Virus record (IMG/VR): IMGVR_UViG_3300028603_000021 | Coordinates: 64,001-128,000 of that record | DNA length: 64,000 bases | Origin: a virus | Taxonomy: Duplodnaviria > Caudoviricetes | Direction: 5' to 3' (one strand) | Shown: positions 11,617-20,328 of the stretch, piece after piece | Numbering within the stretch: the first letter of the stretch is position 1 | Layout: the number at the start of each line of letters is the position of its first letter | Notes under the pieces: generated by a model | What the model saw: the letters and a program-made list of their open reading frames with translations, nothing else | What the model was told of the DNA's origin: nothing | The model's database searches: none | Made by a program: the position numbers and the translations under genes

Positions 11617-12186
11617 ATGACTGAATCTTATGTACGCGGTAAGGATATCATCGTTGCCGTAGATATCGCCTTGAACAAAACAGGCATAGTAATCATGTCC
11701 GGGATGACAGTAGTAAGAAGTGATGTTTTTACACTGAAAACATCTGGAAACTATCTTGACAAACTCGATAAGATTCATGCTTACTTCTTAGAATACTTCG
11801 ACGAACTATTTAAGATGGAGCCTAACAGCATAGAATTAGTCTTAGAAGGCCGACTTTCGCGTGGTTTTTCGGGTAATGTACTTGCCTCTATAGAAGGAGC
11901 CAGAGTGACCACCTACCTTTCTTTCCATGCTAAGCTAAGAGAATATGTGAATGGTGAGAAACCTAAAGTTTTCATATACAGCCCCGGCACCGTTAAAAAA
12001 TTCTTCGCTGGGAGAGAAAACGCCACTAAGTCAGCCATGCATACCGCGGTTGTCTCACGGTTCTCATCCTTGAAGAAGATAAAATTCCAAGAGGATGTCT
12101 ATGACGCTATCTACTTAGGGTTATATCACCTATCCGGAAAGGAGAAAAAGAAGAGTGATACTAGACGAGGTAAAAAAGTATCCTGA
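11617..12186 (+). CDS. RuvC-like Holliday junction resolvase
   Basis: IVAVDIALNKTG, LVLEG, PGTVKKFFAG, DVYDAIYLG acidic tetrad. Confidence 0.8.
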   Translation: MTESYVRGKDIIVAVDIALNKTGIVIMSGMTVVRSDVFTLKTSGNYLDKLDKIHAYFLEYFDELFKMEPNSIELVLEGRLSRGFSGNVLASIEGARVTTYLSFHAKLREYVNGEKPKVFIYSPGTVKKFFAGRENATKSAMHTAVVSRFSSLKKIKFQEDVYDAIYLGLYHLSGKEKKKSDTRRGKKVS

Positions 12187-12625
12187 GCTTAGCGAGATAC
12201 TGATAGACCGTGATAAACTCCTGAGAAGCTTAGGCATAGATATGGTCACACGCGAATATATCGTCCTAGCCGAGCTTACGATACCAGAGCTGCAAGACCT
12301 ACAGATTAAGTCTCTGATGTGGTCTGAGACGGTGAACGAAGCACTCAGCACAGCTGAGCTTCTTAGGGACAAGCAAGCTGGAGAAACAGAGCGTATCGCC
12401 TCCGAAGTCATAAAAAACATGATGTCTATGGAGACTGAGTATAAGGTCACAGAGGCTAAGGCACACGCTAAGGCTTCTCCTAAGGTTATCGAGGCTTCAA
12501 ACAAGCTCAGCACCTTAGTCGCATACTGTAAGTTCTTAGACAGGCTCAGGGAAACCATAGATAAGTACCACTACACCGTAAAAGGTCGCACACGTAAGAT
12601 GGACGAGATAGAAAGGAAGTACTGA
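12155..12625 (+). CDS. helical hypothetical protein (possible UvsY-like recombination mediator)
   Basis: All-helical pattern, size and context; weak assignment. Confidence 0.4.
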   Translation: MILDEVKKYPELSEILIDRDKLLRSLGIDMVTREYIVLAELTIPELQDLQIKSLMWSETVNEALSTAELLRDKQAGETERIASEVIKNMMSMETEYKVTEAKAHAKASPKVIEASNKLSTLVAYCKFLDRLRETIDKYHYTVKGRTRKMDEIERKY

Positions 12626-12626
12626 G

Positions 12627-13496
12627 TTGAGCATACAAGACGCAAGAGAAAAGCTTGAGTTTGCAGAAGCGCACCCAGATATATTCGATCCAGTCAAGGT
12701 TCTAGACAAAGGGTTCGTAAGACTCGTAGACTGGTACGGCACCGACTCGCGTATCGCTGAGGCGGCGCGTGTGTCTTACAAAGGTGGCACCAAAGCGGTG
12801 AGGAACGATGCCGGTCTGGTTGACTACCTCATACGTCACTCACATACTAGCCCTGTAGAGCAGGTTGGCGTGACCTTCCACATCAAAGCCCCTATATTCG
12901 TGGCTAGACAGCTCTTTCGACACAGAACCAGCTCGATAAACGAGATAAGCGCTCGATACTCGGTTGTGGAGGAGGAATTCTATGTTCCAGCAAAGGCAAG
13001 AGCCCAAGATTCAGTCAACAAGCAAGGGAGTGTCTTCGACGAGCGTCTGAGCAGCCCTAAGATGAAGGCTATCGTTGAGGAAGTGGACAACATCTCTTAC
13101 TCTGCGTATAAATCTCTGCTGAAAGAGGGCGTAGCGAGAGAAATGGCCAGGATAGTGCTCCCGGTTAACCTCTACACGGAGTTCTACTGGAACCAGAACC
13201 TACATAACCTTCTGCACCTCATACGGCTCAGGGTTGACGAGCACGCACAGTGGGAGATACGTCAGTATGCCGAAGAAATGTACCTGACGGCTAAGATATT
13301 GTTCCCTGGGGCGGTTTCCTCATGGGAAAACCACACCAAAAACTCGGTAAAGCTGTCGGGACATGAAGTAGAGATGCTTCATGAGACACTTACTCCAGAC
13401 ATCTTAGAAGCATTGCTGGAAACTGTTGAAAAAAGTGACCTTCCTTCTGGCATCAAAAGGGAAACTTCGGAAAAGTTTAAAGCCCTGGTGAAGTGA
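12627..13496 (+). CDS. thyX: flavin-dependent thymidylate synthase
   Basis: AARVSY, HTSPVE, RHRTSSINEISARY signature, HAQWEIR. Confidence 0.95.
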   Translation: MSIQDAREKLEFAEAHPDIFDPVKVLDKGFVRLVDWYGTDSRIAEAARVSYKGGTKAVRNDAGLVDYLIRHSHTSPVEQVGVTFHIKAPIFVARQLFRHRTSSINEISARYSVVEEEFYVPAKARAQDSVNKQGSVFDERLSSPKMKAIVEEVDNISYSAYKSLLKEGVAREMARIVLPVNLYTEFYWNQNLHNLLHLIRLRVDEHAQWEIRQYAEEMYLTAKILFPGAVSSWENHTKNSVKLSGHEVEMLHETLTPDILEALLETVEKSDLPSGIKRETSEKFKALVK

Positions 13497-14578
13497 TGGA
13501 CGAGATCTTTGCTGGGCTAGATACTGTCCTGAAGATAGTAGACACAGACTCTGATGTCTTGATACAGTCTTTCGGGACTAAGCTCTATGTGGCCTCGAAC
13601 AACGAATACCACGCAGCGATACATGAGGTTGTTACTGATACAGAGCCATTCCGTATAGTCTTGGAAGGAGAAAGTGCAAAACAGCTCCACAAAGCATTCT
13701 ACGGTGGTAGCATCTCTGTAGACGACAACATACTTACTGTAGACAGCGACGGGTCGTCTGCTGAGTTCCTCGGTCTCACAGGTAAAGAAAAGCTTACGGT
13801 CAAACGCTTAGGAGCTAAGTACACAGCAGATGACCCCGTAAGTATCGAGCCGACAGAACTACTCAGATTGTTTTCCGAAACAAAGCACGCAGCAGGCAGC
13901 CGTGATGTAGGGGATGTGCGCTTCACTGGGTATCACATCTGCATAGGTAGCTCGACTTTAGAGGTCATGGCCACTGATGGGAGTGTTATATCCTTGACAG
14001 ATGCGAAGGCTACCTACCACGGAGACGACGCTCACACCTTAGTGGTTGGGGAGGAGTTCTCGGTGGTTCCTGCTCTGATGCCAGGGGCTGAAAAAGCACT
14101 GTTGGCCTGGAAGGAAGGTACTATATCGACTACCTTCACTAAAGGTAAAGAGACCTTGAGGGTAGTTTCTAACATCATAGCCCAGTCACCGATACTTTAC
14201 CAAGAAGTCGTAGAAAAAACCGTCAGTGCGAACACCAACGAGTATATCATACCTCGCTCAGACTTCGTTACCGCACTCAACAAGGTAATATTCTTCACCG
14301 GAGACGACCAGAAGCAGAGGATAGACATCGAGGTAGAGGGCTCGGTCTGTACTTTCAGGGCTAAGAACAACAAAGGTTCTGTCACAGCGATTTCTGCCAT
14401 AACTCCGCTGGTTACTGAGCACGAAAAGCTTAAGTTCGGGATAAATCTTACATACCTTCTAGCGTTCCTGAAATCAACGAAGTACGAGGACATACACCTG
14501 TGGGTTAACACCGACAAAACTCCGATATTGTTTACTACAGGCACAGGAAAGGAGATAATCGCCGTTTTCAACACTTGA
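13493..14578 (+). CDS. dnaN: DNA polymerase sliding clamp (beta subunit-like)
   Basis: 361 aa three-domain size, VMATDG motif, FGINLTYLLAFLK, TPILF C-terminus. Confidence 0.75.
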   Translation: MMDEIFAGLDTVLKIVDTDSDVLIQSFGTKLYVASNNEYHAAIHEVVTDTEPFRIVLEGESAKQLHKAFYGGSISVDDNILTVDSDGSSAEFLGLTGKEKLTVKRLGAKYTADDPVSIEPTELLRLFSETKHAAGSRDVGDVRFTGYHICIGSSTLEVMATDGSVISLTDAKATYHGDDAHTLVVGEEFSVVPALMPGAEKALLAWKEGTISTTFTKGKETLRVVSNIIAQSPILYQEVVEKTVSANTNEYIIPRSDFVTALNKVIFFTGDDQKQRIDIEVEGSVCTFRAKNNKGSVTAISAITPLVTEHEKLKFGINLTYLLAFLKSTKYEDIHLWVNTDKTPILFTTGTGKEIIAVFNT

Positions 14579-14603
14579 CAGCCAAAAGGATACCTGCTAT
14601 ACT
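14575..14603 (+). promoter_or_regulatory. sigma70-type promoter upstream of the Hc1-like gene and ssb
   Basis: TTGACA-17-TATACT with TG extension. Confidence 0.85.
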
Positions 14604-14638
14604 AGCGTCATACCCACATTTGGGTGAAAGGATAAAAC

Positions 14639-14854
14639 ATGACAAACACACTTGAACGTCAACCATCAGCTTCTTCTCTCACACTACGTGAGAACTTCGA
14701 CGCATTCGTCGCAGCCTTTGAGGACGAGTTCCGTGCACAAGCAACAAAGAAGAACGAAGCCTCAGAACGCAGGATGCGTAACCTACTCCGTAAGTTCACC
14801 AAGCAAGTCTACGAGCCCTACAGGGACACGACACTCGGAAGGAACCGCGAGTAA
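14639..14854 (+). CDS. small basic helical protein, histone H1-like (Hc1) family-like
   Basis: KKNEASERRMRNLLRKF resembles KGNKAAGxRARK; AAAGGA RBS. Confidence 0.5.
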   Translation: MTNTLERQPSASSLTLRENFDAFVAAFEDEFRAQATKKNEASERRMRNLLRKFTKQVYEPYRDTTLGRNRE

Positions 14855-14860
14855 CCACCT

Positions 14861-15580
14861 ATGAATGACGTAACTTTGAGTGGGATTATAAGCGGATCGT
14901 TTCAGGAGTACGGTAACGACGGAATCCTGTTTAAGGCTGTTGTATCGGCTGGCAGTAACAACAGCGATGAATTCACGTGCTTAGCTTTCAGCAACAACGC
15001 CTCCTTCATCAAGCACAAGGGTAAGAGTGGTCAGCGCATCGTTTTCCAAGGCAGACTAGGTAGCGATAAACTCGGTACGGAAAACTACCACAGTGCCCTT
15101 ACTGTGGGTCGAGTCCTTGCGATAACTGACTCCGACAACGGTACTGACTCTGCATCTATCGTAGTCACAGGAGAATCCGAAGTACAGGATATCCGATACG
15201 TTGGGCAGAAAGAGACACCGTTGGTTCCCATCAAGATGACCAACCTCAGAAGCTTCCGAGGACGAGACGGGCAGACCAACACTTACAAGACATTCATCGG
15301 TGCCTCCGCATGGTCTGACAGGGCTGTGGCATTAAACGCTTCGTCTCCAGAGGGTGTCTACCCGCTGGTAGTCTCAGGATTCCTGAGGTCTAGGAACTAC
15401 GAGAACCAGGACGGCGACACCATCGAAAAGATTGATGTATGGGTGCAGGAGGTTCTACAGGGAGAAGGGCTCTTCGGTGACGAAGACTCCTCCCCGGCGG
15501 AGACTTCTAAGCTCGAGAAAAGCAGCAAAACCGAGAAGAAAGAGCCACGACGCGCTGCCGTTGACGACGCTCCTTTCTAA
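14861..15580 (+). CDS. ssb: single-stranded DNA-binding protein with two OB folds
   Basis: MNDVTLSG...FQGRL (OB1); VVTG...SAW...VSGFLRSRNYE (OB2); acidic tip DDAPF. Confidence 0.9.
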   Translation: MNDVTLSGIISGSFQEYGNDGILFKAVVSAGSNNSDEFTCLAFSNNASFIKHKGKSGQRIVFQGRLGSDKLGTENYHSALTVGRVLAITDSDNGTDSASIVVTGESEVQDIRYVGQKETPLVPIKMTNLRSFRGRDGQTNTYKTFIGASAWSDRAVALNASSPEGVYPLVVSGFLRSRNYENQDGDTIEKIDVWVQEVLQGEGLFGDEDSSPAETSKLEKSSKTEKKEPRRAAVDDAPF

Positions 15581-15582
15581 AC

Positions 15583-15601
15583 ACGAGGGTAATTCCCTCG
15601 T
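15583..15601 (+). other. stem-loop right after the ssb stop and right before the ribozyme cleavage site
   Basis: ACGAGGG-TAATT-CCCTCGT; no U-tract. Confidence 0.7.
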
Positions 15602-15602
15602 A

Positions 15603-15658
15603 GACTCGCAGACTGATTGCCTCCACGTGGCGCGAGTTGGGTCAAGCTAAACATCAGT
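15603..15658 (+). ncRNA. minimal HDV-like self-cleaving ribozyme (no P4)
   Basis: P1 GACUCGC/GCGAGUU with first G-U pair; P2 ACUGAU/AUCAGU; P3 GCC/GGC; L3 UCCACGU; P1.1 CC/GG; J4/2 GCUAA with catalytic C15647. Confidence 0.85.
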
Positions 15659-15659
15659 A

Positions 15660-15795
15660 CGGTTCGTGGTTGACACCCACACTGAAAACCGCATGGAAAA
15701 GGCACTCGCTCAGGATAATGGTTCAAATTCTTCCGATAAATAGCACTCGACTAGGTGGAAGCCCAAACAGAGTGTGGCGGGTGCCTGGAACATGC
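15660..15795 (+). ncRNA. unclassified structured RNA with three T-loop-like hairpins
   Basis: Nested stems CGGUU/AACCG, GCAUG/CAUGC, GGCACUCGCU/GGCGGGUGCC, GCACUC/GAGUGU; 7-nt loops UUGACAC, UUCAAAU, UGGAAGC. Confidence 0.6.
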
Positions 15796-15811
15796 ACGAG
15801 AAAGGGGTAAG

Positions 15812-16339
15812 ATGCTAGTAGGTATATCGGGCAAGAAAAGGGTAGGGAAAGACACATTCTACCAGCTGTCAAAAAGCCACTTAGAACACAAAGTTCCAGG
15901 CATAAAAGTAAGAAAATACTCCTTTGCAGATGCAGTTAAGCAGTACGCTGTAACATATTTTAAAACTAACCCAGAAGATAAAGAAGTAACTAGGTACATA
16001 CTACAGGGCATCGGACAGATGATGCGAGATGTTGTACGTAAAGACTACTGGATAGAGAAAGTACTTAACCTGTACGAACTAGATGTGCTAGTCGGAGGTG
16101 TTGACGTAGGGTTTGTCACCGATGTACGCTACACAAACGAAGCTGATATCTTCCACGACGACGATCTGTTGGTCAGAGTCACAGCACCCATCCTCCACTC
16201 AGACCCCCACCCCAGCGAAACAGCTCTGGATAACTATCACTTTGAGTACATGATAAACAACGATGGAACACTAGAAGAGTACAAAAGAAAGGTGGAAGAA
16301 TGGACGGACAAGATGATACTCCCCAGATTGATGAAGTAG
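15812..16339 (+). CDS. deoxynucleoside monophosphate kinase
   Basis: GISGKKRVGKDT P-loop, SFADAVK, RYILQGIG, TDVRYTNE, HPSE; real start ATG 15812 after AAGGGG. Confidence 0.9.
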   Translation: MLVGISGKKRVGKDTFYQLSKSHLEHKVPGIKVRKYSFADAVKQYAVTYFKTNPEDKEVTRYILQGIGQMMRDVVRKDYWIEKVLNLYELDVLVGGVDVGFVTDVRYTNEADIFHDDDLLVRVTAPILHSDPHPSETALDNYHFEYMINNDGTLEEYKRKVEEWTDKMILPRLMK

Positions 16340-16344
16340 CCGCT

Positions 16345-16911
16345 ATGCAAAACACGATACTAGCAATGGTGACCGGTGAAACTCCTGCACCAGGTAGGTC
16401 TGTAACCAGTGATCTCATAACTCCCAAGATAACCTTCGAGAAGCTTCTAGACACAGCGGTGATTCCAACACACCACGGTGAGTCTCAGCACGACAACGTA
16501 GGCATGGACTTCTACGCCGCTGAAGATGTTAACTGGAGGCGGGTATTCCATGAAAACACCGTTGGTCATGCAGATGTCATCCAGAAGTCTCCTTCCATAG
16601 TCTCTGTTGCACTAGTGCGCACCGGGTTGCGTGTAGCCCTACCACCAGGGATGCACCTCAGGTTTGCCTCGCGGAGCGGGTTAGCTACAAAGTCACTTGT
16701 CTATGCATTTCCCGGGACAGTAGACTCTTCGTTTCGCGGAGAGCTTATGATACAGCTTCTTGCTTTCGGAACGCATCCGCCCTACCTGAAAGCTGGGGCT
16801 AAGATCGCTCAGGGGATAGTTTTCCGAAGCGAAAGCTATAACATCTTCGAAGGTAAGGTCTCTCTAGATACATCCCGTGGGGAGGCAGGTTTCGGGAGCA
16901 CCGGACTGTGA
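16345..16911 (+). CDS. dut: trimeric dUTPase
   Basis: GMDFYA, SRSGLA, GTVDSSFRGE, KIAQG, RGEAGFGSTG. Confidence 0.92.
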   Translation: MQNTILAMVTGETPAPGRSVTSDLITPKITFEKLLDTAVIPTHHGESQHDNVGMDFYAAEDVNWRRVFHENTVGHADVIQKSPSIVSVALVRTGLRVALPPGMHLRFASRSGLATKSLVYAFPGTVDSSFRGELMIQLLAFGTHPPYLKAGAKIAQGIVFRSESYNIFEGKVSLDTSRGEAGFGSTGL

Positions 16912-17183
16912 TGCCTATCTACGACTACAAGTGCCGAGAATGTGGTAACATATGGGAAGTAGAACACTCGATATCGGTGGATGACGCTGTGGAAGAACTA
17001 GGACTGAAATGCCCAGAATGTGGGTCACAAGACATCTTCAAGTACCTGGGCAAGCGCAAGAGCCTTACAGTCAAGTTTATCGGCACTGGGTGGTACATCA
17101 ACGATTCAGCTTTAGAAGCCGCTGGGATGCCAGAAGCTACCAGAAACAGCCCGGAGACCAAGAAGCGTTTGTTCAGAGACTGA
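16908..17183 (+). CDS. FmdB-family zinc ribbon protein
   Basis: MPIYDYKCRECG...CPECGS...FIGTGWY. Confidence 0.85.
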   Translation: MMPIYDYKCRECGNIWEVEHSISVDDAVEELGLKCPECGSQDIFKYLGKRKSLTVKFIGTGWYINDSALEAAGMPEATRNSPETKKRLFRD

Positions 17184-17193
17184 GGAGGGTTAT

Positions 17194-18867
17194 GTGCTGT
17201 CAGAGATACTAGAAAAAGTTGACTTCGTTGCCCTCGTGTCACGAAAAATCTCTCTAACAAAGACCAAGCCAGATTCTTACAAGGGGCTTTCTCCGTTCAC
17301 GAACGAGAAAACCCCAAGTTTCTTTGTGAACGCTCACTCTAAGACGTGGTATGACTTCTCTGCTGGTAAGGGCGGGGGAGTTATCGACTACGTGATGCAG
17401 ACAGAAAACATCTCTAAGGAGGGTGCAGTTGCCTTCTTAGCAGACCTCGTAGGCATAGAGATAGAGCAGAACCACCACCTGACTCCACTGAGGAAGATAG
17501 TCAAACTGAGCTACGACTTTTTCCTAGAGCACGCGGAGCAAGCTTACCCGTACATGAAGTCTCGGGGGTTTTCTGTAGACACGCTGAAGCGCTACGGGGT
17601 GGGATTCGCCCCGGACGGAAACAAGACACTTATAGACCATCTTCTTGCGGCTAAGTGTAAGTCAGACGACATAGTTGCAACTGGAGTCGGGTACATCAAC
17701 AACGGAAGGCTGCTGTCTAGATACCAAAACAGAGTGGTTTTCCCGATAAAAGACGCCTATGGCACTATAGTTTCGTTTACGGGCAGGGCAACCGACGCAA
17801 CCCATCACGCCGCACCGCGTTACGTCCACGGTGCTAGCTCTCCGATATTCCGCAAGAAGGAAGTCGTTTGGAACCTGAGCAGCGTAAGAAACCTTATCGC
17901 TGAGCATAACATGGTTATCGTGTGTGAAGGTCAGATGGATGCGTTGTCTGTGTGTGAAGCCGGTCTTCCTGGCGTGGCGATACTAGGTTCCAACCCCACC
18001 AACGAGCAGATAAAACTGCTTGCTGGAGCAGCAGCAAACATCTACTTTGTCTTCGACTCTGACTCTGCTGGTGAAAAAGCGCTGCTAGAAGCCTTCAAGG
18101 TCGCAGAAGACACTGGGGTAGACTCCGTTCTGTACTCTATAGTGCTCCCGGAGAAAGAAGACCCCAACTCGTACTTACAGTCACACTCCACGGAAGACTT
18201 CTTGTCATTAGTAACTAACGCCAGGTCAGACACCTCTGCTATCATCCGTGCACTCATCAAGAAAAACTTGGGAGCTAACCGCACCAGAAGCCAAGTAGCT
18301 AGCGCTGTCATACGCGAGCTAGCGCCTTACGTTCAGAGTAAGCTCAGCTACCGTGGTTTAGACTTAGTAGAGCGAGCTTCTCAGGAGTTCAGCATAGACC
18401 AGCGCCAGCTACAGCAGATGATCCAGTACAAAAACGCCGACAAAGTGTCTGCACTGGATCTGGATAAGATGACATTCCCAGCACCGATATATGAAAGACG
18501 CATACTCTATTTCGTTCTAGACAACCCTAGTAACATCATAGAGTTCAGGAAAAGCGGGATTTCTTACCTAGACTTTGAATCCTCGCTCGTGAGCAAGGCC
18601 TTAGAAACAGTTGACCCGACCATGGACTCAGCTGCTGTGTTCGACGCCTTGAAAGACGCCCTTGAAGAGGAAGAATACTACACGATACTGGAGTTTTACT
18701 CGAAGGGTCTAGACGGGTCGTTCACGACAGCGCTAGAGGTCATGCGGGGGATGGTGCTCAAGAGAACCAGAGACGCTAAGAACGATTTCCTCGGGAGGTC
18801 TACGCCAGACACGGACTTCATCAGAGAGAAAAGGCGAGAACTTAAGGAAAAGTTAGGAGCAAGATGA
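17194..18867 (+). CDS. dnaG: DNA primase
   Basis: EKTPSF, NRVVFPI, FTGR, TOPRIM CEGQMD and FDSDSAG. Confidence 0.95.
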   Translation: MLSEILEKVDFVALVSRKISLTKTKPDSYKGLSPFTNEKTPSFFVNAHSKTWYDFSAGKGGGVIDYVMQTENISKEGAVAFLADLVGIEIEQNHHLTPLRKIVKLSYDFFLEHAEQAYPYMKSRGFSVDTLKRYGVGFAPDGNKTLIDHLLAAKCKSDDIVATGVGYINNGRLLSRYQNRVVFPIKDAYGTIVSFTGRATDATHHAAPRYVHGASSPIFRKKEVVWNLSSVRNLIAEHNMVIVCEGQMDALSVCEAGLPGVAILGSNPTNEQIKLLAGAAANIYFVFDSDSAGEKALLEAFKVAEDTGVDSVLYSIVLPEKEDPNSYLQSHSTEDFLSLVTNARSDTSAIIRALIKKNLGANRTRSQVASAVIRELAPYVQSKLSYRGLDLVERASQEFSIDQRQLQQMIQYKNADKVSALDLDKMTFPAPIYERRILYFVLDNPSNIIEFRKSGISYLDFESSLVSKALETVDPTMDSAAVFDALKDALEEEEYYTILEFYSKGLDGSFTTALEVMRGMVLKRTRDAKNDFLGRSTPDTDFIREKRRELKEKLGAR

Positions 18868-19736
18868 ACACAAAAGATTACCTGTTCTCTGCGTCCTCTT
18901 ACAAGGAGTACCAGCAGTGTGGGTTAAAATTCCGCTACAAGCGAGTAGATAAGATTCCATCTGGCGACGAGATCTCTCATCACAGATGGTTTGGACGGAT
19001 CGTGCACGACCTGGTTTACATCGGTCTAGCCGAGAGGAACGGCAGCAAAGACTACACCCTCAGAGACAAAGCTCAGAAGAGGTATGCAACCTCTCTGGTG
19101 GCCGGGATATGGGACACACGACCCAAAGACGAGACGGCTAAAGCTGTCATGGAGGGGGCTGGGGATAAACCAGAAAACTTCTTCCCCGGTAAGATACAGT
19201 CTTTACAAGGCACTCCCTCGGCTATAGAGAAAGGCTGGGAAAAACAAGCCAGAACTATGGTAGGAAACGGGATAACTGCCCTAAGCCCTATCCTCAACGA
19301 TATCATAGAGATAGAGGCTAAACTCCTCTGGAAGTGGCACGACAGACGGTTCATAGGGTACGTGGACATCATATCCAAGGAAGACGGCAAGATTCACTTC
19401 TATGACCTGAAAACCGCCTGGAACAAGCCCGGCAAGAGCCTAGAGAAAGACTTTCAGTTCTACAGCTATTCTCTGGCTCTGAAGGAAAAGTATAACCTAG
19501 ACTACTACCCGACAGGACACTGGGTACATCTCAAAGACGGGTCTGTGCTAGATTTTGATGTAACGCAAGAGATAATCGACTACCACGACAAAGATGCAGA
19601 CCAGCTGTTCGAAAGGCTAGAGAACGATGTATTCCCAGCGAGCCTGGGAAGCCCGTTATGCAGGTTCTGCGACTACAGAAACCTGTGCTACGGAGAAGAT
19701 TTCGACTGGGAAGGGTGGAAACCAACGCTATGGTGA
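18864..19736 (+). CDS. PD-(D/E)xK RecB/Cas4-like exonuclease with Fe-S cluster cysteines
   Basis: SASSY...QC, GYVD, YDLKT, QFYSY, CRFCDYRNLC. Confidence 0.85.
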   Translation: MNTKDYLFSASSYKEYQQCGLKFRYKRVDKIPSGDEISHHRWFGRIVHDLVYIGLAERNGSKDYTLRDKAQKRYATSLVAGIWDTRPKDETAKAVMEGAGDKPENFFPGKIQSLQGTPSAIEKGWEKQARTMVGNGITALSPILNDIIEIEAKLLWKWHDRRFIGYVDIISKEDGKIHFYDLKTAWNKPGKSLEKDFQFYSYSLALKEKYNLDYYPTGHWVHLKDGSVLDFDVTQEIIDYHDKDADQLFERLENDVFPASLGSPLCRFCDYRNLCYGEDFDWEGWKPTLW

Positions 19737-19942
19737 TAAAGGGACTCAACAACCATGTTATACTGACTCCGATACCCAACGAAGAGCTATGGGGCGTTGC
19801 CGTGACTGCAAACAAAAACCTGGGTATAAGCCCAGGCGATAACGTCTTGTTTGCTTTCGGTAGCTACTACGAGTTCTCAGTGGAGGGGACGGCATACATA
19901 GCCGTGCCAGAAGCTGATGTAGTAGCGCTCGTCTCCACCTAG
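19730..19942 (+). CDS. groES: miniature GroES-like co-chaperonin
   Basis: IKGLNNHVIL...ISPGDNVLF..GSYYEFSVEGTAYIAVPEADVVALV; 70 aa. Confidence 0.7.
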   Translation: MVIKGLNNHVILTPIPNEELWGVAVTANKNLGISPGDNVLFAFGSYYEFSVEGTAYIAVPEADVVALVST

Positions 19943-20328
19943 GGTATAGGGGTCTGTGTACCCCTGTCGCTGCCCCCACCATTTTTCTTTTGTGGCGGGG
20001 TATCCTTACCACCCTTACCGTCTTCGTATTCTTTCTGAGCCTTCTCAAGCTCTGACAGCAGGTCGTCTATCTTCTTCTCTCTAGCCGCTTCTTCTTCCGT
20101 GGGGACATAAGCAATAAGCTCCCCACGGTGTTTTTCTATCGTCTCTCTTATGATCTTGGCGGTCTGGGCTTCTACGAATTCTTGCAGCTTAACTGGGTCT
20201 ATAACAGCAGTACCGTCTTTCTTCTCGGCTGTTCCTAGTTTGTCTAGAGCACCGAAAAGCCCCTTGAGCACTGGTGCAATATACGGAAGAAACTTAAGTA
20301 TAAGACCTAGTATGGCGAATATCTGCAT
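19939..20328 (-). CDS. membrane-anchored coiled-coil protein (possible lysis accessory)
   Basis: Hydrophobic N-terminus, charged helix; last gene of the late operon, downstream of the holin-like gene. Confidence 0.5.
   Translation of the reverse strand: MQIFAILGLILKFLPYIAPVLKGLFGALDKLGTAEKKDGTAVIDPVKLQEFVEAQTAKIIRETIEKHRGELIAYVPTEEEAAREKKIDDLLSELEKAQKEYEDGKGGKDTPPQKKNGGGSDRGTQTPIP

Follow-up and report, generated by a model that had tools for sequence, protein, structure and literature searches.

A predicted theta-type ribozyme between ssb and a dNMP kinase gene in the replication operon of a 190-kb phage

Theta ribozymes, a minimal form of the HDV-like ribozymes (HDV, hepatitis delta virus), were described in 2024 as trimmers of tRNA 3' ends in Caudoviricetes, and members of the family self-cleave in vitro (Kienbeck et al., 2024, Nat Commun, PMC10879173). 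In that survey, 526 occurrences (42% of the total) do not lie beside a tRNA; these are mostly intergenic and in sense orientation to their neighbours (96% of them), and the authors left the function of non-tRNA theta ribozymes open (PMC10879173). Here we analyzed an element of this kind in the IMG/VR phage record IMGVR_UViG_3300028603_000021 (190,018 bp, 49.8% GC, 100% complete according to CheckV). It was found in a 64-kb window, bases 64001-128000 of the record, at positions 15603-15658 (all positions refer to this window unless marked as genome positions), in the gap between the gene for SSB (ssb) and a deoxynucleoside monophosphate (dNMP) kinase gene of a DNA replication operon. As with the isolated theta subset, the element is intergenic and sense to its neighbours, and its architecture and segment lengths are identical to those of that subset. 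It differs from the published set in its place within a replication operon, 22 nt past the stop codon of ssb and 1 nt behind a hairpin, and in being followed directly by a non-coding RNA (ncRNA) of a type found in phage tRNA arrays.

The element can be divided into segments whose lengths and fixed letters are those of the published theta ribozymes (Table 1; PMC10879173 tables). With the HDV ribozyme (RF00094), the F. prausnitzii HDV-like ribozyme (RF02682) and the drz family it shares the nested double pseudoknot, and the core nucleotides align. Unlike RF00094 and RF02682 it has no P4, and by Rfam's own criterion it is a member of neither family. P1 has 6-7 bp in theta ribozymes and G1 is paired as either G.U or G-C (39 and 17 of the 56 family members that we aligned, respectively); here it is a G.U pair that opens a helix of 7 bp. 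P3 and L3 conform to the RCC/GGY and U-CC-NCGY patterns (GCC/UCCACGU/GGC, 15619-31), P2 spans seven positions, and P1.1 is the CC/GG pairing that is kept in 56/56 members. The J4/2 segment begins with C and reads CUAAA, where the family has C-U-A-A plus 0-1 nt. In place of P4, the most frequent L4 in the family is GUAAUG, GUCAUG is also seen, and the window element has GUCAAG. The one irregular position is the innermost of P2, which is either a U15618/C15652 mismatch or a U15618-A15651 pair with C15652 bulged; P2 mismatches occur in 15/56 members, and every one of them is at this innermost pair. Overall, the element matches 14 of 14 invariant and seven of eight near-invariant columns of the family alignment.

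Its presence was evaluated with a descriptor written from the ribozyme segments in the supplementary tables of PMC10879173. Scanning both strands of the 190,018-bp genome gave a single match, the site at 15603-15658, and no match was obtained in 150 first-order-Markov genomes of equal size (57 Mb in total). When, as a control, the descriptor was given A or G in place of the catalytic C, it matched nowhere in the genome; with U it matched the same site, solely through a register shift. When IMG/VR was scanned with a pattern that spans L3 to J4/2 alone, 113 new loci were retrieved, 95 of which also have the P1 5' strand and P2, neither of which the pattern specified. A tRNA 3' end predicted by ARAGORN adjoins 63 of 101 sites. 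Thus, the published tRNA association is reproduced, and the descriptor picks up real theta ribozymes. A covariance model (R1) of P1 and P3, built from 56 other theta ribozymes, scored the window element at 55.2 bits (E 1.3e-11, 15603-15657). This was the sole R1 match in the window and, with an unchanged score, the top of three in the whole genome.

At gathering thresholds, no Rfam family was matched within the window. A relaxed search of 15500-15850 against 4227 families returned only two matches, and both were HDV models: RF00094 at 20.7 bits (gathering 50) and RF02682 at 20.5 bits (gathering 44), aligned end to end at 15601/15603-15659. The scores stay below the thresholds because P4 is absent and because the models do not score the P2 pseudoknot. 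By all sequence and structure criteria, including a significant model score, the element is a theta-type minimal HDV-like ribozyme, for which self-cleavage is predicted. A sequence-only reading of the window had proposed such a ribozyme, with no tRNA attached and within a replication operon, and had named descriptor and covariance searches among the ways to check it. Those searches gave the unique genome match and the 55.2-bit score described above, and the call is borne out as well by the Rfam alignment, by ARAGORN and by gene annotation. Each of the pairings that it listed (P1, P2, P3, L3, P1.1 and J4/2, with P4 missing) is present in the sequence, as is the 7-bp hairpin that it had noticed right behind the ssb stop (15583-15601).

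No tRNA was identified in the 64-kb window by ARAGORN, and within 15500-15850 Rfam gave no tRNA match even at E values as high as 10. The 28 tRNAs of this genome are encoded at 15-37 kb on the other strand. The element therefore lies outside the tRNA-associated subgroup, in which no more than 5 nt separate the cut from the 3' end of a tRNA. The absence of an attached tRNA, which the sequence-only reading had stressed, is real, but it is not unusual given the 42% of published occurrences that are likewise isolated. In the sampled family, the position 5' of G1, where HDV-like ribozymes cut, adjoins tRNA 3' ends, and at the tRNA-theta junctions the cut falls 0-1 nt past the 7-bp acceptor stem; the extra nucleotide is an A in eight of eight one-nucleotide cases. 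The window element resembles these in that the predicted cut comes directly behind a 7-bp helix and one unpaired A. Here, however, the helix belongs to a simple hairpin with a 5-nt loop and not to a tRNA. The hairpin begins 2 nt after the ssb stop codon (15578-80) and ends 1 nt (A15602) before the predicted cut. The nested minimum free energy (MFE) fold of 15575-15665 has z = -0.94, by a method that is blind to the double pseudoknot. As a separate observation, at 32 of 45 unique tRNA-theta junctions (loci L016-L128) the 7 nt before the cut pair with positions 1-7 of the ARAGORN tRNA, so that the ribozyme G1 would take the discriminator position, a point that hinges on the 5' ends called by ARAGORN.

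The genes around the ribozyme are all on the + strand, in the order ThyX, a clamp-like protein, a 71-aa open reading frame (ORF), SSB, a 231-nt non-coding gap, dNMP kinase, dUTPase, a zinc-ribbon protein, DnaG primase and a PD-(D/E)XK nuclease. Protein searches of IMG/VR with the SSB and the kinase recovered one 99%-identical contig, and a search of 5.8 billion proteins added six relatives in which SSB is 44-55% identical and the gene order is kept. In these relatives, the spacer between ssb and the kinase gene is only 65-77 nt long and is occupied by a 10-14-bp GC-rich hairpin, of an intrinsic-terminator or stabiliser type, which is followed by a U-tract in two of the six. Neither the descriptor nor R1 identified a ribozyme in any of the six. 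Since the ribozyme and the structured RNA behind it (a block of ~165 nt) are lacking in all six relatives, the block is specific to the lineage of this phage. In position, gene order and the presence of a stem-loop that ends the ssb message, the relatives' hairpins and the window locus agree. They differ in that this phage has a weaker 7-bp hairpin, and a predicted RNA-catalysed cut would set the 3' end exactly behind that hairpin. The large hairpin of the relatives is thus replaced here, and the putatively ancestral structure appears to have given way to a small one, with the predicted cut 1 nt past it. As a U-tract is found in just two of six relatives, the conserved feature after ssb is a stem-loop and not termination as such. 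No loci of intermediate distance were present in the collections searched.

We then considered whether the same arrangement is found at other theta ribozymes without a tRNA. The sample contained 31 unique sites without an ARAGORN tRNA; in 13 of them a T-loop-like motif is seen, so that a tRNA was probably missed, which leaves 18. At 7/18 sites, a perfect hairpin of 6 bp or more ends no more than 5 nt from the cut; the background, taken from random positions in these loci, is 12%. Looser hairpins are present at several more of the 18 sites, one of them followed by UUUU. At eight of the 18, the ribozyme lies 9-76 nt past the end of an ORF on the same strand. The window element, 22 nt past a stop codon and 1 nt past a hairpin, fits this recurrent arrangement.

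On balance, we consider it probable that the element is a functional theta ribozyme within a polycistronic replication transcript, which would cleave between A15602 and G15603 and so split the operon into two messages. Transcription probably begins at a promoter-like site (14575-14603) and continues across the small ORF and ssb. The 7-bp hairpin would be the first structure to form, and the nested double pseudoknot (P1, P1.1, P2 and P3) could fold as soon as the transcript includes position 15658. C15647 in J4/2 would then catalyse the transesterification between A15602 and G15603 co-transcriptionally. The upstream product would be an ssb message whose 3' end, a 2',3'-cyclic phosphate on the single A behind the hairpin, is expected to withstand 3' exonucleases and polyadenylation. 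On the downstream side, the product would have a 5'-OH within the compact ribozyme fold and would carry the ncRNA together with the genes for dNMP kinase, dUTPase and primase. The operon's two halves would be uncoupled, with independent stabilities; in the relatives, the large hairpin or terminator at this place appears to do the same job. The distance of 22 nt from the stop codon may keep the ribozyme clear of the terminating ribosome. Folding of the HDV ribozyme is aided by upstream structure, and the hairpin may sequester a CUCGU stretch that might mispair with the 3' strand of P1. From context, we infer that cleavage takes place, which ends it leaves and how it affects stability. An operon split had also been the proposal of the sequence-only reading, and among the readings considered it is the best supported by context: the relatives' hairpin, the recurrent placement behind hairpins and ORF ends, and a consensus scan of the + strand that found no promoter-like or terminator-like site from 14603 to 18649, which includes the stretch between ssb and the kinase gene.

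Several points weigh against an operon-splitting ribozyme. Both Rfam HDV models remain under their gathering thresholds, as is expected for a form without P4, and one P2 pair is irregular. The members of R1 were retrieved with an L3-J4/2 pattern taken from the core of this element, and that part of the R1 score is inflated, while the helices are independent of it. The only other copy, on the 99.3%-identical contig IMGVR_UViG_3300009868_000541, offers no covariation, and its 231-nt spacer has no substitutions relative to the window where ~1.5 are expected by chance. The statements about promoter and terminator come from consensus scans only, and the enrichment of hairpins was obtained from just 18 sites. 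Elsewhere on the near-identical contig, a 39-nt indel relative to the window was observed at 16368-16408, in the overlap of the dNMP kinase and dUTPase genes.

Directly behind the ribozyme is a structured ncRNA of ~135 nt. The tRNA arrays of Klebsiella phages KP13-26, FKP3 and KP2025 contain an unannotated spacer, with tRNA-Phe on one side and tRNA-Arg on the other, to which segment 15706-15779 of the ncRNA has 82% identity. One helix shows compensatory changes between the window copy and the Klebsiella phage copies. An assignment as a tRNA or a known RNA family was rejected, as ARAGORN and Rfam were negative for both the window and the Klebsiella phage copies. Searches with an invariant 16-mer and an nhmmer profile yielded at least 12 more members, so that the family counts at least 14. 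Almost all of them lie no more than 250 nt from tRNA genes, on large phage contigs with many tRNAs. The family is ~110-125 nt long. Its 5' hairpin has a loop of the UGAC type, CGCY/RGCG forms the closing helix, a covarying helix of 3-4 bp closes the invariant loop UAAUGGUUCAAAUUCU, and AAGGUGAAA is the loop of another hairpin. When 13 members were aligned with MAFFT, RNAalifold recovered two short helices alone, with the 3' half misaligned. The divergent member L170 had no BLAST match among GenBank phages. In the present genome the ncRNA occurs once, outside the 28-tRNA array. With a combined pattern for a ribozyme directly beside the ncRNA, the near-identical contig was the one match in IMG/VR, and the JGI metagenomes had none. 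Given that the ncRNA resides in tRNA arrays elsewhere and that the ribozyme adjoins it nowhere else, the ribozyme here takes the place of a tRNA. The sequence-only reading had set the element apart from tRNA biology. It is right that no tRNA is attached, but the adjoining RNA belongs to a tRNA-array family, and the ribozyme is therefore less divorced from tRNA biology than had been suggested.

The genome also encodes enzymes that act on RNA ends: a DRB0094-family RNA ligase, RtcB and a nucleotidyltransferase of the CCA-adding type. Together these putative enzymes make up a full RNA end-healing and sealing set. In theta-bearing phages, the DRB0094 ligase is enriched 140-fold and tRNA adenylyltransferase 250-fold (PMC10879173); many of those phages carry both the DRB0094 ligase and a CCA-adding-type enzyme, as this genome does. 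More than 80% of the published set comes from gut phages of Bacteroidota and Bacillota, whereas for this phage (190 kb, 49.8% GC) a primase comparison gave no placement, as all of the matches had <30% identity and were to scattered phages.

Instead of splitting the operon, the ribozyme could serve the downstream ncRNA: a module transplanted from a tRNA array, in which the ribozyme replaces the flanking tRNA and gives the ncRNA a defined 5' boundary. An ncRNA of tRNA-array type would then be released from, or insulated within, an mRNA, which is compatible with an operon split. The family lies among tRNA genes in the other phages sampled, the tRNA arrays of loci L036 and L074 contain both theta ribozymes and this ncRNA, the single copy here lies outside the phage's own array, the ~165-nt block behaves as a single insertion, and in this phage alone two outer helices (15691-95/15791-95 and 15701-05/15781-85) surround the ncRNA core. 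However, an HDV-like ribozyme cuts its own 5' end and would remain joined to the ncRNA, a scan before the ribosome-binding site of the kinase gene gave no signal for an ncRNA 3' end, and the direct adjacency of the two is seen nowhere else in IMG/VR or the JGI metagenomes. We regard this role for the ribozyme as possible but doubtful. A broader and still less likely version is that ribozyme and ncRNA form a mobile RNA-processing cassette from a tRNA array that was put into an mRNA, where it would replace both the terminator hairpin of ssb and the flanking tRNA, with its ends handled by the RtcB, DRB0094 ligase and CCA-adding enzymes of the phage. That the ribozyme is a passenger, recently acquired with the ncRNA insertion, intact or freshly inactivated and without a selected role in operon expression, seems quite unlikely to us. 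The element is lineage-specific, the near-identical contig gives no depth in which purifying selection could be revealed, and the function of all non-tRNA theta ribozymes was left open in the published survey (PMC10879173). All invariant positions are nevertheless intact, including the catalytic C and the first G.U pair. A ribozyme that cuts midway through an essential replication operon must have consequences for the genes downstream, its placement 1 nt past a hairpin and 22 nt past a stop codon is a recurrent arrangement, and the loss of the ancestral large hairpin suggests replacement and not addition.

Two further explanations have much lower probability. The cleaved ends might be substrates for RtcB or the DRB0094 ligase of the phage, with the transcript rejoined, or joined to other RNAs, in certain conditions. 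Both enzymes are encoded, and RtcB substrates are exactly the ends that an HDV-like ribozyme leaves; the enrichment of the DRB0094 ligase in theta-bearing phages (PMC10879173) also speaks for it. In a phage with 28 tRNAs, however, tRNA repair and maturation explain these enzymes more simply. Their genes are 26-34 kb away on the other strand with no physical link to the locus, and the genome-wide R1 search found no second ribozyme nearby that could bound an excised or circularised segment, so that we hold cutting and resealing to be very improbable. Finally, an ordinary intergenic sequence could resemble the HDV-like pairing scheme by chance, and the Rfam thresholds are indeed not reached. With no descriptor match in 57 Mb of simulated sequence against one in the genome, the E value obtained with R1 and every family-invariant nucleotide in place, chance is effectively refuted.

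Apart from the window element, the R1 search of the whole genome gave two lower-scoring matches. The first is a weaker theta-like candidate of 20.3 bits at genome 34960-35012 on the - strand (L246:1501-1553, -), with the segments GGACAC/AA/GGUCU/GCC/U/CC/ACGU/GGC/GUGUCU/GG/AUUCAAA/CCAA/AGACC. Its P3 and L3 are the same as in the window element, and P1 and P2 have 6 and 5 bp, respectively. This candidate is situated ~78 nt downstream of a tRNA-Met, with a UUCG-tetraloop hairpin 5 nt before its cut and a terminator-like hairpin after it. The other match, at genome 47840-47885 (13.7 bits, E 0.5), was taken as chance. In the operon itself, the sigma-70-like promoter candidate is located between the clamp-like gene and the 71-aa ORF, and the ribozyme-containing transcript likely starts there.

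Table 1. Coordinates of the ribozyme, its surroundings and related features (window positions unless marked as genome or locus positions).
Feature	Position	Strand	Details and basis
Theta-type minimal (P4-less) HDV-like ribozyme, 56 nt	15603-15658	+	Segmentation, descriptor, covariance model
P1, 7 bp	15603-09/15632-38	+	G15603-C15609 with G15632-U15638; first pair G15603.U15638
J1/2, 2 nt	A15610, G15611	+	Read from the letters
P2, 7 positions	15612-18/15652-58	+	A15612-U15617 with A15653-U15658, 6 Watson-Crick bp
P3, GCC/GGC	15619-21/15629-31	+	
L3, UCCACGU, 7 nt	15622-28	+	
P1.1, CC/GG	C15623, C15624 with G15639, G15640	+	
L4, GUCAAG, 6 nt	15641-46	+	Stands instead of P4
J4/2, CUAAA	15647-51	+	Predicted catalytic C15647 first
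Predicted scissile bond A15602/G15603	15602-15603	+	Directly 5' of P1 G1, as in all HDV-like ribozymes
7-bp hairpin ACGAGGG/CCCUCGU, loop UAAUU	15583-89/15595-01	+	-12.6 kcal/mol; in MFE and centroid structures
ssb, 239 aa	14861..15580	+	PF00436, E 4.6e-10; relatives at 44-55% identity also PF00436
dNMP kinase, 175 aa	15812..16339	+	ATG 15812; PF21448, E 1e-11
Genes downstream of dNMP kinase		+	PF00692 (dUTPase), PF09723 (Zn-ribbon), PF08275/PF01807 (DnaG primase), PF12705 (PD-(D/E)XK nuclease)
Shine-Dalgarno-like GAAAGGGG of dNMP kinase gene	15800..15807	+	4 nt before the ATG at 15812; read from sequence
Sigma-70-like promoter candidate TTGACA-17-TATACT, extended -10 TG	14575..14603	+	11/12 consensus matches, best in 12000-20000; consensus match only
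Structured ncRNA, ~135 nt	15659..15795	+	82% identity to Klebsiella phage spacer, compensatory changes
ncRNA 5' hairpin, loop UUGACAC	15666-81	+	
ncRNA outer helices	15691-95/15791-95, 15701-05/15781-85	+	
ncRNA conserved core with invariant loop UAAUGGUUCAAAUUCU	15696-15782	+	
ncRNA members elsewhere	L001:2965-3085, L036:9530-9680, L074:5240-5410, L206, L242, L135, L220, L224, L170, L226, L186, L227, L193		
ssb-dNMP kinase spacers of relatives	L007:3748-3825, L008:3730-3802, L011:3733-3802, L013:3706-3787, L014:3721-3799, L015:3733-3808		
DRB0094-family RNA ligase	genome 45529-46530	-	TIGR02306, 252 bits
RtcB	genome 52640-53779	-	195 bits
CCA-adding-type nucleotidyltransferase	genome 163145-163519	+	PF01743, 73 bits

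The RNA class and its isolated members have already been published, and the window element is a further member; if it were a passenger, it would be merely that. What is added here is a natural exchange of a hairpin for a ribozyme among syntenic relatives, a link between theta ribozymes and an uncatalogued RNA family of phage tRNA arrays, and the presence of RNA-end enzymes (DRB0094 ligase, CCA-adding enzyme and RtcB) in the same genome, in a phage that could not be placed near the gut-phage groups of the survey. If ribozyme and ncRNA did travel as a mobile cassette, theta ribozymes would be general, portable operon-splitters tied to the end-healing and sealing of RNA in phages, rather than trimmers of tRNA. 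With gene order conserved, and a plain hairpin in the six relatives versus a hairpin plus ribozyme here, the hypothesis that the ribozyme gives ssb mRNA a hairpin-capped 3' end and uncouples the two halves of the operon is directly testable. Thus, the locus is a clean natural experiment for the role of theta ribozymes without a tRNA, which make up about four in ten occurrences.

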